Below, one piece after another: positions 24,001 to 30,000 of a stretch of 64,000 nt of DNA; within the stretch, counting starts at the first letter, position 1, and every line of letters starts with the position of its first letter. This DNA comes from Nitrospirales bacterium (GTDB taxonomy: Bacteria; Nitrospirota; Nitrospiria; Nitrospirales; UBA8639), in NCBI GenBank assembly GCA_963422365.1, contig OY729426.1, positions 2,048,001 to 2,112,000 of the forward strand, read 5' to 3'. The position numbers were made by a program.

Positions 24001-27000
24001 GGTTAAATGTTTGGACTTGGTGGGTGTTATTGATATGTGGGTGTGCCACTTTGATTCTGCCAAACATCCCCTTCTATCAGGCAGGGATGTCTTTCAGGTA
24101 TGAATTAGGCGGAATGGCATTAGTCGTCATATACCTCTCGTTTGGATTTGGGAGCCTTGGCCTCTACGGTCTTGTGATGGCCGGACTAGGGTGGAAGCTG
24201 CCATCCCCCAGAACTTCCAAGACTCTCAAGATCGGATTGGCTGCAATCAGTTTTGCCGTGGCATTGGTGTGGTGTTACCTGACCTTCATGGACCTCACGT
24301 TAGCCCTCTAATATCCAGAAACATGTTTGCGATCCGACGGGTACCGACACATCAATCAGTCATAGAATCACCGGGTGATGGCTTTTTGTGCTGGAAGCAT
24401 GTTGTGCAAGCAATGGTTCTTGGTATGTCAGTGGTGGTGTTGGCGAAATGGGGAACCGGCCTTCCATCCTGGCAAGATGTGATTGCTTCGGAGAACGGAC
24501 CGGTTGAACGCATGAGTGCAGCCTTGTGGTTTATGGGGTTTTCGTGGAGTCTCGTTGCGGCCTCTGCCCAACGAGTACGAACGATGGAATGGTTGAGTGT
24601 TGCGATGTTCCTTCTGTTATTCGGCTTACGAGAATTAGATGCCCATAGGTGGAGCACAGGATGGAATCTGGATAAACTTGCGAATTATTGGAATCCACAT
24701 TTTCCCGTAGGTGAGAAAATGGTGGTGCTGGGATTGATGGTTTTGCCATGTATAGGGGTCGGAGGTCTGGTCTGTCTGAGGTTATGGCAAACGGTCAGGC
24801 AGGCATGGAGAGCCGGTGAATCCTGGGTGAACCACTTGGTGTTGGGTATGCTGCTGCTGGTTGTCTGCTTCTCTCTTGATAAAATTGGCCCCTATACTCT
24901 CCCCCTTCTGGGCGTTAGTGAGGTCGGCCAACTCTTTGCCATGGTCATCGAGGAATTCTTGGAACTCGTGCTTGCGGTATTTACTATGATATCTCTGTGG
25001 CCATACTTGCAGGAAGCATTTGGTGGTTATGAATAATTATTGGACGAGCCGGACAGTGTGTCTTTCTGTTATCAGCGGGACACCAAATGAAGGAGGTCCT
25101 TCGACATGAAAAGCTTCTTGGCGGTCATTCAACCACAAAACGGGGCTTGCGGTGGAGCTCGACCTGCCGAATCGAGCCCTCCTGGCTTGGAAGCGGGTCG
25201 ATCGCACCGTCCCCCCCCCTCACCAGGACCTAGACACCAATCCGCCGAGTCTCTTGAACAGTGCCATCAGGGATTGGTCCCGACCCGCCTGTCTCAGATG
25301 TCCTGAACGAGTACCCGTCTTTGTGCTTCCAACAAGATCTTGTTACAATTTCTTCCATTCATGCCGCCTGCCATTCATCCAGTCGATCTTCTCCGAGTCC
25401 TTCGACACCAACATCTGACCCCGGCCATTGTCTTTTTGACCTCTCGGCGCGCCTGTGATGAGGCCATTGAGAGCTTCGAACACCGACAGATCCCTATTCA
25501 AGCCACGCGATCCGCAGCCATCACGCAAGTCCTGGAAAAGATGATTGCCGAATATCCCAGTATCGCCAACCACCCCTTGATTCCCAGGGTTCAACGGTAC
25601 GGAGTGGCTGCCCATCATGCCGGACATCTGCCGTCCTGGAAAATTGCCGTTGAAGAACTCATGCGCAATGGGTGTTTGGATGCAGTCTTTGCAACCGCCA
25701 CGTTAGCCGCCGGCGTGGATTTTCCTGCCCGAACCGTCGTCATTACCCAGTCGAGTGTCCGCAAGGATCGCGATATCATGGAACTGACCGTGAACGAAAT
25801 CCAGCAACTTGCCGGTCGTGGCGGAAGACGAGGGAAAGATTACGTGGGCTTCGTTGTGATCACGCCATCGCCGTATATTGACATCGGCCCTATTGCGAAT
25901 GGACTCACGAATCACCCGGAGCCGATCGACAGTCAATTTCTCATCTCCTATCCCATGGTCCTGAATCTCTTGAAGGCCCATACCATCGATCACATTCAAC
26001 CGGTTTTGGAAAAGAGCTTTGCGCAATTTCAGCTCAACCAACGGGCCGATATCTATGAGACAAAGTTAGACAACGTGGAAAAGCAATTGGAGGCCTATGG
26101 CCAACGAGAATGCGCCGATTGGATTACGCAGTGGCAATCCTTTAGCCTTGCCAAAAAACGCCGCTCACACCATCACTCGAAGACACGGCAAGACCCGCCG
26201 GAAGTCTCGGCCCAATTAGCCTTCCTCACACCAGGCCGCGTGGTCGAACTATCCAAAGACCACGCCATCGTCTTGCGTCAATATCGAAGCCGCGGGCAAG
26301 GCTACGCCATGTTGACCGTGGTTCGAAGTCGCGGGCGCATTGTGGAATATCCTGCAAGCGCCGTGACCGCGGTGGTCGACGAAGTCATTGACATCGCGGA
26401 GGCCAGAAAGTTTCCATGGTGCATGCCTCATAGCCTAGATCACGCGATCGAAACATTAGAAAATTTCCCCACTCGATTACGACATCTCCCTATTCGGGTA
26501 GATCAGAACGGCACCGACAACCCGATTCTGACTGAGACGCTCAGCGACGAGTATCCCTGTCCAGCCTGTCCGGCCCGTCATGCGTGTCAAAAGGACCACC
26601 CACAAGCACTCAAGCTACGCCAGGAAAACCATCGGTTCACGAAAACCATTCATGCCTTGCGCACCGAACTCTGGCACCGCTTCCAGCAACACGTGGAAGT
26701 CTTGCAGAAATTCGGCTACCTGACTCCCACGTGTCAGCTCACCCCGGATGGCGACTGGGCACGCTTGATTCGCATCAATCATTCGTTACTCATCACAGAG
26801 TTAATCAGGATGGGGGCGTTTGAAGGGATCAACGCTTCTTTACTGACGGGAATCTTAGCGAGCATCGCGCATGACGATGATCGTCCAGCCTCCTTTCCCG
26901 GACGCAACCAGGCTCTGGCCTCAACCCTCGGACAAGTCCGGAAGGTAGCCCACTCGTTGTCCGCGTATGAAAAACCACCTCTCCTGCGGTCGGACATCGC

Positions 27001-30000
27001 AGCGATAGCGGAACTCTGGATCGCCGAATCCACCTTACCTTGGAACGAACTCATTCAATCGACCACCATGGCCGAAGGGGATATCTATCGACTCCTGGCT
27101 CGAAGTTTAGAATATCTCTCTCAACTGCATGGATTACAATCGACTCATCCGTGGTTGGCCAATATCGCGAGGAACGCGATGGATCTCATGCGCCGAGACG
27201 TGCTGCAAGAATTGCCATGAGACCAAGTGGAAAACAACGACACCAAGGCTCGCCGCACGTCTCTAGGGGAAGAGAACGAGCCATGGAGAAAATAACTGGA
27301 CGCACTTCAAGGACGCGCATGACGAACGACGCATTAGCAAGCCAATTAGCCAACCTGTCGGTCAAACTGCTCCACCATCTGGCAAAGGGACGAGTGCCTC
27401 GACATTTTCGAATGGGGAAGGACCGAATTATTCAAACGCTCTTAGGCTTGCCCTCTGATCAGCAAGCAGAAGTTGGAACGGCCATCGAGTCTATCCTTGG
27501 CACGCCCGCACACTCTCCCAAAACGTCCGAACCGAAGCAACCACCAAAACCCGATGCACCGTCTGCATCCTCCCCACCCCAGCAACGGCACAACGCAACA
27601 TCGGAACCGGCTATCAGTACGAAGGTGCTTTTTGAAGGCATTGGCATTCCTCCGCCACAACCCTTCAAGCCTGATGAGTGGCAACAAGAAGCGATCGACT
27701 CCTTAGCGACCAATGACGTGATTTTGAGTGTACCCACTGGCAGCGGCAAAACCTACGTTGCGATAGAAGCCATGGGACGGGCCATCGATGCAGAGCAAAC
27801 AGTCATTTACACGTCACCTTTGAAGGCACTCTCAAACACAAAGCTGACGGAGTTTTCACAGATTTTTGGTGCTGACCAAGTCGGCATTCTTACAGGCGAC
27901 CGTCGTGACAATCCGCAAGCTCCCATTCTGATCATGACTACGGAGATCCTGCGGAATTTACTGTACGATGCCGCAAGCGGTGAGATCGACGTGCGGTTGG
28001 ATACATTAGGCTTGATCATTTTGGATGAATCGCAATTTCTCGCTGATCCGGAACGTGGAGTAGTCTGGGAAGAAACGATTATTTTTTGTCCTGCGCAATC
28101 TCAATTACTGCTGCTGTCAGCCTCCATCGGAAACCCTGACGAAGTCGCTGCCTGGATTAGCCGGATTCGTTCCAGATCCTGCCATCTTGTCCATCATCGA
28201 AATCGCTCCGTCCCGCTTCGCGCAGCCTACCTCGATCCCTCTGGAAAACTCGCACCCTTCTTCCGCACTCGAGACATTGCTCACGGCAAAGGCTTTGCCA
28301 TCCACTCCGAAACCAAACGCTTGTTTGCGAACTATGAAGACCGAACCCTCGGTCCGCGATACAGACGATGAAGCCCAGGGATATGAGAAAGAGGAAAAAA
28401 GACCGCTTAGAGTAACCGGCGAGAGGTTTTCTTGTCGGCTTCTGGATTGTTATTCGGCTGGCAGACGTCGCATTGACACATCTGACGAAGTTTACCGAAG
28501 GCATACAGCCCGGTATCATGCCCATCACTCCAAATCAGGCGTAACGCATAATGCCCCACCGGCTGGATATCCTTCAGCATGATCAGCATCGGCACATCAT
28601 CGGGTTTCAGTTTCAACTCACCGGTCCATTCATCCGTACAGGCCGCGCAGGGGCAGTGTACTCGCAGATAACGAATCGGATAGACGCCTTGGTGCCCATC
28701 ACTCCACGCGATGCCGAACACGCCCTTCTCGATCCACTTCATATCTTTAGGATGAATGGTCTCTGTCCCCATCTCTCGACGTTCTCACGTCTTTCTGCAT
28801 AAGCCCATACGGTACCGGTGGTTCCGCCGCTAACAAATCTTTCTCCGGCAGCCGTTTCCCCACAACGGCTCTCGCATAGGTTTCGACAATGTCTTCCACC
28901 TCTCTCCGTACCTGGCCCGTCGCCTTCAGACGCCTCGCAAGCACAAAGGGTATCCGACGGGCCTGGTGGAGAAACGCCACGCTTCCCGGAGACATCGACA
29001 AACAATAGTCCCAACTGCTTTGATCGCACAGTCGACACAGCCCTCCCCCAGCCGAAGGGGAAAACTTGGAATGCCGCTCCCCAAAATCCTGACCACAGGA
29101 GGCACAATGATCAATCTGTGGTTGAAACCCTGCTTGTCCCAAGATGTGAATCTGAAAAATTAACGTGAGTAATCCAGGATCATCCGTCTGAACTAACAAC
29201 CGCAACCCTTCCAACAGCGTATGAAAAATCGGTGGACTCGGGTCACGATCTGCTGTCACACCGTCAACAAAGGCCACCATACAAGAAGCTGCCCAGATGC
29301 AGTCTAAGTTCTCTCGCAATGCGCTAAAGAATTCAAGGCTATCAACATGACTGATCGATGCAAGGCTGTCATTGCGTTTCTCAAAGAATGTGAGATTGAC
29401 CAACGAAAACGGTTCAAGCATTCCGCCGAATCGGCTTTTCATTCGGCGCGCGCCGCGTGCGATCCCTCGAACCTTCCCAAGTCGAAGAGAAAAAAACGTG
29501 AGAATGCGGTCAGCTTCTCCCCAGCGCGTGCTTCTGAGAACGATCGCATGTGTGGTGACAAGAGCCATACAAAGACATGCTGAGAGCGTAGCAGGAGTTG
29601 AGGGGTCTCACCAAGAACCCGTTGCTCTCGCCCTACCTCTCCCTTCAACAGCACAGGCCAGACTTATCTCAAATAATCCAGCATGATCGTGGCAAATCCA
29701 AGGTAGATGCTGACCCCTGTAACATCCATAACCGTGGTGATAAACGGTCCCGCTGCCACCGCTGGGTCAACATGCAAGGTTCGTAAGAGCAAGGGGGTCA
29801 CCGTGGCGATACTCGACGAAATAATAAACGTAATCAGTAATGCGCCACCAACCACTAACCCTAAATACCCATTCCCCTGCCACATCCATCCCACTAAAAA
29901 AAGTAAAATCCCACAGAGCACACCCAAGAGTAATCCAATACGCAACTCTCGAAACACGACTTTCCAAATATCACTAGGCTCGACACGACCCGTGGCAAGA

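Follow-up and report, generated by a model that had tools for sequence, protein, structure and literature searches.

In the window, i.e. the whole 64,000-nt stretch of Nitrospirales DNA analysed here, a Ski2/Mtr4-type helicase is encoded by two adjacent genes, A and B (Table 1), and the cut between their products lies within the RecA2 domain. The two chains quite probably reassemble at a ratio of 1:1 into a heterodimeric HelY-like 3′–5′ RNA helicase. No other copies of either half were found in this genome.

Table 1. Features of the two-gene helicase locus (positions in the window)
Feature	Position	Strand	Description
Gene A	25361..27220	+	619 aa: rest of RecA2 (motifs IV–VI), winged helix, arch, DSHCT helical bundle (domains partly predicted)
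Gene B	27319..28371	+	350 aa: SAP/Rho-N-like domain, low-complexity linker, RecA1, presumed first RecA2 strand–hairpin–helix, basic tail
DSHCT domain of A	26735..27205	+	Pfam PF08148, E 9e-22
QQLAGRGGRRG on chain A, taken to be motif VI (arginine-finger motif)	25802..25834	+	invariant columns
Arch insertion of A	26036..26680	+	limits approximate, from SKI2W/Mtr4 alignments; four invariant Cys: 251, 400, 403, 409
Walker A VPTGSGKT on B	27730..27753	+	P-T-G-S-G-K-T invariant, 41 sequences
Motif II DESQ on B	28024..28035	+	DExH in all other clades examined
RecA2 piece on B (presumed), residues 298–344	28210..28350	+	strand, hairpin, helix; superposes on Mtr4 324–361
SAP/Rho-N-like domain of B, residues 1–61	27319..27501	+	four helices, from model and fold matches
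Spacer between A and B	27221..27318	+	98 nt; AAGGA ribosome-site-like word ahead of B start
Extended −10-like motif TG-n-TACAAT	25341..25349	+	11 nt upstream of A start

Residues 271–536 of human SKI2W are matched by B and residues 556–852 by A, which confirms the claim of the genome-wide survey's note that a helicase of this type is encoded by two ORFs; both are on the forward strand. Gene A has Pfam matches to Helicase_C (residues 79–158) and DSHCT (residues 459–615); the DSHCT profile match and alignments with SKI2W and Mtr4 through the start of the arch indicate that the winged helix, the arch and the helical bundle are all on this chain. Both ends of A are nearly invariant among 42 aligned members (start MP[PS][AS]IHP, terminal ELP), and the ELP is followed here by TGA. 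The four arch cysteines likely form a zinc site, with metal binding predicted from the sequence pattern CxxC-x4-6-C that is found in 85 of 86 Nitrospirales chains. Gene B has a Pfam DEAD match and contains motifs I, Ia, Ib, II and III as invariant columns; its length is counted from a conserved Met, and an alternative in-frame ATG at 27283 would yield 362 aa. Motifs IV, V and VI are on chain A and the first element of RecA2 is on chain B. In the motif that we take, from our knowledge of SF2 helicases, to be motif VI with the arginine finger, Q149, G152, R153, G155, R156 and R157 are invariant in 42 sequences. The ATP site would be built from two chains, as the note had proposed, with motifs I–III on B and V–VI on A, provided that the enzyme works at all.

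The further claim of one gene per RecA domain holds for RecA1, which is on B, and fails for RecA2, the beginning of which is also on B. The chain continues for 50–59 residues beyond the R-x-V-P linker, and structural superposition of the B model extends about 45 residues beyond RecA1, up to Mtr4 residue 361. Matches to RecA1 alone stop at model residues 297–300, and the end of B coincides with the end of the Mtr4 matches at 361 or with a jump to 391. Because B runs past R-x-V-P and superposes up to residue 361, the cut is inside RecA2 and not between the RecA domains. Residues 298–344, which presumably contain the first RecA2 strand as in the SF2 architecture known to us, are proposed from the model as a docking element for A. 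All 183 split RecA1 chains that were measured retain R-x-V-P followed by 23–98 residues, showing that one and the same element precedes the cut in every case. Weak covariation was found for the pairs B301–A162, B303–A164, B305–A10, and B311–A17. In the split-only set (effective depth 36, overall 159), the cross-chain covariation that fused proteins show did not exceed the null (p 0.08–0.45), and within-chain pairs did (p 0.003–0.06); the shuffled-pairing control destroys relatedness and is an unfair null.

Matches to A were found in 119 of the 121 genomes of the order and matches to B in 117, i.e. 117 of the 119 genomes with A contain both halves, and in all 117 these are two separate genes rather than one chain. 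A stop is present upstream of every A match, and the open frames of these matches have at most 769 aa. The swapped order, which the survey had reported throughout the Nitrospirales, is typical and not universal: A is followed by B within 1 kb in 110 of the 117 genomes, in family f4 the genes lie either on separate contigs or at a distance of 13.7 kb (4 of 4 genomes), and they are separated in three further genomes. The rest of the phylum gave seven weak matches in 181 genomes, and one of 67 other genomes of the class was matched, in a 746-aa frame.

The restoration of one protein by frameshifting, readthrough or splicing, or an assembly artefact, could be considered, as a GTGA start–stop overlap occurs at eight fetched loci, and at a few loci the two genes share one frame with a single stop between them. 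Both are next to impossible and are refuted by several observations. The fetched adjacent pairs include all three relative frames and TGA, TAA and TAG as stops of A, and their spacers range from −4 to 299 nt. In genome G089 A and B are both intact and 7 kb of inserted DNA, with an ORF of 1862 aa, lies between them, and in G102 A is frameshifted and an intact B is 32 kb away; elsewhere the genes are unlinked. Owing to the reversed order, readthrough would yield a permuted chain, and no fused or permuted Nitrospirales chain was seen among 64 matches of 1085–3095 aa, the 150 best cluster representatives, and 119 genomes. Contigs from two other runs, which may be the source of this DNA, cover the whole stretch with zero differing letters or gaps; this agreement and the 117 genomes with two genes bear out the survey's view that the split is no assembly error.

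The pair is surrounded by housekeeping genes. In family f2 glgC is located upstream of A, and in f1 MFS and DUF971 genes are on the two sides of the pair. No neighbour was common across clades, and genes for RNA decay or the ribosome were not among the conserved neighbours; a glgC gene beside B in f4 was apparent only and unconfirmed on checking. A role as a defence helicase (Hachiman HamB, DISARM, BREX) was rejected, since the matches are confined to the core motifs (best E 2.5e-15), and the helicase is present in 119 of 121 genomes amid housekeeping genes.

The N-terminal domain of B is new in this analysis. Its model (pLDDT 92–96 within B, 84.7 when folded alone) shows a SAP/Rho-N helix–extension–helix fold. 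The fold search yielded FAN1 463–535 (Z 8.8, rmsd 2.9, 60 aligned), the SAP domains of SIZ1 (Z 7.2) and PIAS1 (Z 6.8), and the N-terminus of Rho (Z 5.7). Seven of the eight top matches of residues 1–64 are SAP/Rho-N proteins (FAN1, SIZ1/PIAS1, Rho, T4 endonuclease VII), with Z values of 5.4–8.8 that are middling for a small helical domain. The top rows of Foldseek contain the same proteins with E values of 0.8 or worse, and Atlas rows at 0.79–0.80 carry Rho_N/SAP, which is a lead only. Twelve B N-termini gave no Pfam SAP/Rho_N match, and a search of PDB sequences returned nothing useful. The domain has a conserved basic face with an invariant G33-K34 and probably helps to bind nucleic acid. 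It is missing from the B chains of f4, and the unlinked B chains of the Chloracidobacterium group have a longer, helical N-terminal extension; when the N-terminal domains of the two groups were compared as profiles, the probability was 0.3, a weak result with wrong coordinates in one of nine rows.

An extended −10-like pattern is present ≤30 nt upstream at 43 of 64 A loci versus 0 of 58 B loci, counts in which related loci are not independent and one gene is counted twice. This suggests that A may be transcribed from a promoter of its own, with a very short leader; the motif was absent from the listing of a consensus promoter scan.

Both halves are under purifying selection, with dN/dS values of 0.05–0.18 for A (15 pairs) and 0.02–0.17 for the core of B (9 pairs). 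Two genomes, G013 and G120, contain an intact A, and B was not found in their assemblies (99% complete, about 30 contigs each); the dN/dS of A between them is 0.083, and a polysaccharide gene cluster is located downstream of A in G120. Both are draft assemblies with gaps. Selection on A in two assemblies without B is compatible with chains that meet transiently or work apart, A as an RNA-binding or scaffold subunit and B as a SAP-aimed ATP-binding module, so that the split would be a control point. The lack of linkage (in f4, in 14 of the 21 genomes of the Chloracidobacterium group, and in all 5 Pyrinomonadales genomes that were checked), the N-terminal domain gained by B in Nitrospirales, the longer extension of the unlinked Chloracidobacterium-group chains, and the promoter-like motif before A would fit as well. 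We nevertheless consider transient contact or separate action unlikely, because part of the RecA2 domain of A is on B, favouring stable complementation, because the arginine finger and the Walker motifs do not vary and are useful only jointly, and because both absences of B come from gapped drafts.

Motif II is DESQ in 76 of 79 Nitrospirales chains and DEAQ in three, compared with DEAH, DEVH, DELH or DEFH elsewhere; thus, the DExH box that characterizes Ski2-like helicases is DExQ in 79 of 79 Nitrospirales B chains. The replacement of His by Gln, together with the long branch of the Nitrospirales group in the tree, could mark a heterodimer that forms and does not unwind, i.e. a slow or non-processive RNA clamp. 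The invariance of the catalytic D-E, Walker A, SAS and motif VI and the retention of the arch and DSHCT make this very unlikely, as does the Pfam DEXQ family for Suv3, which is an active helicase.

As the survey's note had cautioned, the split is not confined to the order. A cut at the same loop was found in Pyrinomonadales, a Chloracidobacterium group, and a Bdellovibrionota-like clade, where the halves are collinear or unlinked; fused, split-adjacent and unlinked forms are all present in Pyrinomonadales. Trees of the A half and the B half gave the same four groups, and a single clade uniting all split forms was rejected. In the tree, the outgroup rows are unnamed, one Bdellovibrionota-like row is mislabelled as fused (its RG-rich tail matched the motif), and rows L140 and L143, labelled split, are contig-edge pieces. 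Many relatives carry the JGI name 'ATP-dependent RNA helicase HelY'. The same cut in three further bacterial lineages implies that, most likely, a working enzyme is reassembled from the two pieces. More speculatively, and doubtful in our judgement, the repeated cut might be selected and not merely tolerated, yielding an assembly-switched enzyme, a small, separately expressed ATPase subunit with a targeting domain (the SAP/Rho-N fold in Nitrospirales, another helical extension in the Chloracidobacterium group), and a large subunit that can also act alone.

The heterodimer is supported by the invariant or nearly invariant motifs, the low dN/dS values, the co-occurrence of the halves, the lack of another partner in this genome, and the congruent trees. 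Against it stand the missing B genes of G013 and G120, the frameshifted A of G102, the lack of cross-chain covariation in the split set, the DExQ box, and the lack of a decay or ribosome neighbour. The ancestor of the heterodimer would have been a HelY/Ski2-like helicase with one chain of about 900 aa that was cut in a variable, basic, probably disordered RecA2 loop, after the first strand–hairpin–helix and before the helix leading to motif IV. Gene order would then have been free, Nitrospirales would have reordered the genes to A-then-B, and most of their B chains would have gained the SAP/Rho-N-like domain. The separately made products would form a 1:1 complex in which the C-terminal strand of B completes the RecA2 sheet of A and RecA1 packs on the winged helix of A, so that the normal ring is rebuilt. 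RNA-stimulated ATP hydrolysis would occur between motifs I–III and V–VI, as in Mtr4, Ski2 and HelY, and the heterodimer would move 3′-to-5′ on single-stranded RNA. The likely role would be RNA turnover or ribosome-linked RNA remodelling, probably as part of ordinary RNA housekeeping.

To our knowledge, SF2 helicases have been taken to require both RecA domains on one chain. A natural two-chain version, order-wide in nitrifying bacteria and cut at the same loop in three further lineages, suggests that the link between the RecA domains is dispensable and locates a natural split site within the Mtr4/Ski2 fold. One could mutate, label, and titrate the ATP-binding and RNA-channel halves independently, and the position suggests where Mtr4, Ski2 or HelY might be split in complementation tests. 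Pyrinomonadales, with its three forms, is a good case for the study of gene fission.

HelY (Mycobacterium Rv2092c/MSMEG_3885; Streptomyces SCO1631) is likewise a bacterial Ski2-like protein with a DSHCT domain; it is one chain, in contrast to the Nitrospirales enzyme with its two chains, DExQ box and SAP-like domain. In the passages available to us, HelY is described as an RNA-activated ATPase and 3′–5′ RNA helicase (PMC8931766, citing Uson 2015), and the Streptomyces protein is reported to associate with the ribosome (PMC7157823). A literature search, which covered neither supplements nor subscription journals, found no paper on the split. Lhr of Nanoarchaeota is an SF2 helicase on two genes, with a split site that differs between two species (PMC3655853); this split is known from reduced symbiont genomes, and the passage seen gives no site. 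The YprA-family helicase of DISARM is also encoded by two genes (PMC12458937); in the passage seen, the helicase is parted there from an OB-CON-DUF1998 array and the motor is uncut, unlike in Nitrospirales. As far as these excerpts go, neither report describes a recurring RecA2-internal cut in free-living bacteria.

The closest single-chain relatives among the 150 best cluster representatives have 888–915 aa, are 30–34% identical, and align along the entire A. Those in Desulfobacterota/Deltaproteobacteria and some Pyrinomonadales (P0076, P0077, P0078, P0095) belong to the same bacterial subfamily and are uncharacterised; they are fused, have DEAH and, in some cases, the arch Cys motif, and 56–78 residues separate R-x-V-P from the motif IV strand. 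The best solved matches of both halves are Mtr4, Ski2 (SKIV2L) and FRH (E 1e-32 and 2e-38; Z 22.9), which share the order RecA1–RecA2–winged helix–arch–helical bundle once the halves are rearranged. These proteins are single chains tied to the exosome, whereas the Nitrospirales enzyme, with no decay partner nearby, is cut at the loop that matches Mtr4 residues 362–390.

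The genome-wide survey's note reported a Ski2/Mtr4/HelY-type helicase encoded by two adjacent genes, and ORF and Pfam analyses confirmed this arrangement: gene A carries motifs IV-VI, the winged helix, the arch and DSHCT, and gene B carries motifs I-III. Sequence searches with either half gave Ski2/Mtr4 proteins as best matches. The human SKI2W ranges assigned to the halves were reproduced, i.e. residues 271-536 for B and 556-852 for A, with weak matching of 1017-1238 by A. A whole-genome search revealed no second copy of A or B.

Features of the window
Feature	Position	Strand	Remarks
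Gene A	25361-27220	+	619 aa; Pfam Helicase_C and DSHCT
Gene B	27319-28371	+	350 aa; DEAD, Walker A, DESQ (motif II)
Direct repeat, first copy	23873-23931		59 nt
Direct repeat, second copy	25265-25323		59 nt; 78% alike, near-exact over last 38 nt
Patchy island	18900-23900		a pair of short, related lipoprotein-like ORFs at a distance of 3.7 kb (repeats D1 and D5)
TraT-family ORF	22756-23349		shortened; in island
Apparent P-loop ATPase gene	20896-22091	-	three pieces; in island

Between the 59-nt repeats, just before the promoter region of A, lies a 1.4-kb block whose ORFs lack Pfam matches; repeats and block together are possibly what an insertion or duplication left behind. In family f2 (loci L040-L042, L050-L062, L070) the gene immediately before A is glgC, and a ribosome-site-like word stands in place of the extended -10 motif, which makes co-transcription of the two genes probable in these loci.

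In the order Nitrospirales, A was matched in 119 of 121 genomes and B in 117. No A is fused, as the longest open frame around any match in the 119 genomes is 769 aa. A is followed by B within 1 kb in 110 of the 117 genomes having both. The seven exceptions are G089, with A and B 7.5 kb apart and a 1862-aa ORF between them, G102 (32 kb, A frameshifted), G092 (halves on two contigs), and the whole of family f4 (three genomes with the halves on different contigs and a fourth with 13.7 kb between them). Thus, the claim of an order-wide split stands, but the swapped adjacency is not universal. In G089 both genes are intact, and the intervening ORF (L038:6226-11814) resembles an autotransporter or surface protein. 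Of 67 genomes from other orders of the class, one gave a match, in a 746-aa frame (G486:C91:19953-20645), probably a single-chain protein. The other 181 genomes of the phylum gave 7 weak matches.

In 70 fetched loci, A ends with TGA, TAA or TAG, all three frames of A relative to B occur, and the spacers of adjacent pairs range from -4 to 299 nt, which rules out readthrough and frameshifting. Contigs of two sequencing runs (X4 and X5), possibly the source of this assembly, cover the stretch unbroken with zero differences, and pieces of a run from a second study (X6) are likewise identical. The survey's denial of an assembly error is borne out by these contigs and by the varied stops and frames, and the chance that recoding or an artefact underlies the two ORFs is practically negligible.

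The survey's description of one gene per RecA domain needs correction. Residues 115-340 of the predicted B model (pLDDT 81) superpose on yeast Mtr4 147-361 (2xgj, Z 22.3, rmsd 3.4, 211 aligned). With Pol theta, Brr2 and Prp2 the match reaches only to B residue 296-300. In several Mtr4 entries it stops at 361, and in one it resumes at 391; Mtr4 399 aligns with A residue 12. B thus comprises RecA1 and ~45 further residues (strand, hairpin, helix), and the cut lies inside the stretch equivalent to Mtr4 362-390, which, judging from the match ranges, would be an unmodelled loop. By SF2 architecture, the strand following the R-x-V-P linker motif is presumably the first strand of RecA2. In a covariation run with 354 paired rows (effective depth 159), the top cross-chain pairs were weak and included B301-A162 and B303-A164 in parallel-strand register, B305-A10, B311-A17, and several RecA1-to-winged-helix pairs. 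With split-only rows, the cross-chain pairs of the fused set did not exceed the null (p 0.08-0.45); within-chain pairs did (p 0.003-0.06).

B residues 1-61 form four confidently predicted helices, kept in families f1-f3 with L10, L18, G33 and K34 invariant; B of f4 (273-274 aa) lacks them. A Pfam search with this part gave no match. The wide fold search ranked FAN1 463-535 first (Z 8.8, rmsd 2.9, 60 aligned), followed by the SAP domains of SIZ1 (7.2) and PIAS1 (6.8), the Rho N-terminus (5.7) and T4 endonuclease VII (5.4); the top Foldseek rows were FAN1 and Rho, both weak. Because the top rows belong to one fold class, we read the predicted structure, at middling Z, as a SAP/Rho-N-like domain, which may bind nucleic acids.

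It is likely that A and B form a stable heterodimer, since A and B each contribute motifs to the ATP site, part of A's domain sits on B, both chains are under selection (dN/dS 0.05-0.18 for A, 15 pairs; 0.02-0.17 for the B core, 9 pairs), and no other partner was found for either. The assembled chains would restore a Ski2-like ring and unwind RNA 3' to 5'. B was not found in two 99% complete drafts (G013 and G120), which counts against strict pairing, and their A is intact (dN/dS 0.083); a looser, regulated pairing is rather unlikely. Downstream of A in G120 (L042; the G013 locus is L041) lies a dTDP-rhamnose/polysaccharide gene cluster. The helicase motifs are unbroken on both chains, and a non-unwinding clamp appears quite improbable. 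For the heterodimer, RNA helicase activity is borrowed by analogy from HelY, as mentioned in PMC8931766 (citing Uson 2015), and a ribosome-associated role or one in RNA decay would likewise be borrowed from Streptomyces HelY (PMC7157823) and Mtr4/Ski2. The gene neighbours gave no functional hint, and defence-system matches were confined to core motifs.

A cluster-representative search yielded single-chain relatives (888-915 aa) as well as several short proteins that begin just before motif IV; three groups of the latter were traced. In Pyrinomonadales the best 120 matches of relative P0081 have 612-673 aa; among 43 genome loci, 21 show the split in normal order, 9 have a fused gene, and in 13 RecA1 is missing from the locus (some at contig edges). 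For five of these 13 the genome was searched, and in all five a stand-alone RecA1 gene lies elsewhere; in one of them, a closed chromosome, it is ~45 kb off on the opposite strand. The Chloracidobacterium group (28 proteins of 542-590 aa) has adjacent halves in normal order in 7 of 21 genomes and halves on different contigs in 14. Of the 14 unlinked RecA1 chains (L256-L281), 13 carry a helical N-terminal extension of ~150-190 residues, absent from adjacent collinear chains; a noisy profile test found no similarity to the Nitrospirales N-terminal domain. The third, Bdellovibrionota-like clade, with one member labelled Bdellovibrionales, is split in normal order at 15 of 18 metagenome loci, three being uninformative. 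R-x-V-P plus 23-98 residues is retained in all 183 split RecA1 chains measured, most with a basic tail at the end; among the clades examined, swapped order and DExQ occur only in Nitrospirales. Some split A-type chains have just 420-500 aa, apparently without most of the arch (L106, L107, L109, L110; Bdellovibrionota-like L157-L170).

Separate trees of the two halves were calculated from subsampled sets of 205 and 194 rows, and a tree of both halves from 67 selected rows (LG+G4, no mixture). Support was 100/100 for each of Nitrospirales, the Chloracidobacterium group and the Bdellovibrionota-like clade, with an open backbone. Pyrinomonadales group with fused Desulfobacterota (97/93), fused and split forms being interleaved. 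The tree requires six state changes. A single clade of all split rows was rejected (p-AU 5.6e-9); one origin with later re-fusion within Pyrinomonadales was not (p-AU 0.09). There were thus several changes of state, for which repeated fission is the simplest account.

A literature search covering passages of papers found no description of the split; one member is already annotated as 'putative Helicase (C-terminal)'. The SAP/Rho-N-like domain, the unlinked family, the four split clades with the tree test and the two assemblies without B may be additions. Lhr of Nanoarchaeota is likewise a two-gene SF2 helicase, and that of DISARM is also encoded by two genes, but is parted outside the motor.
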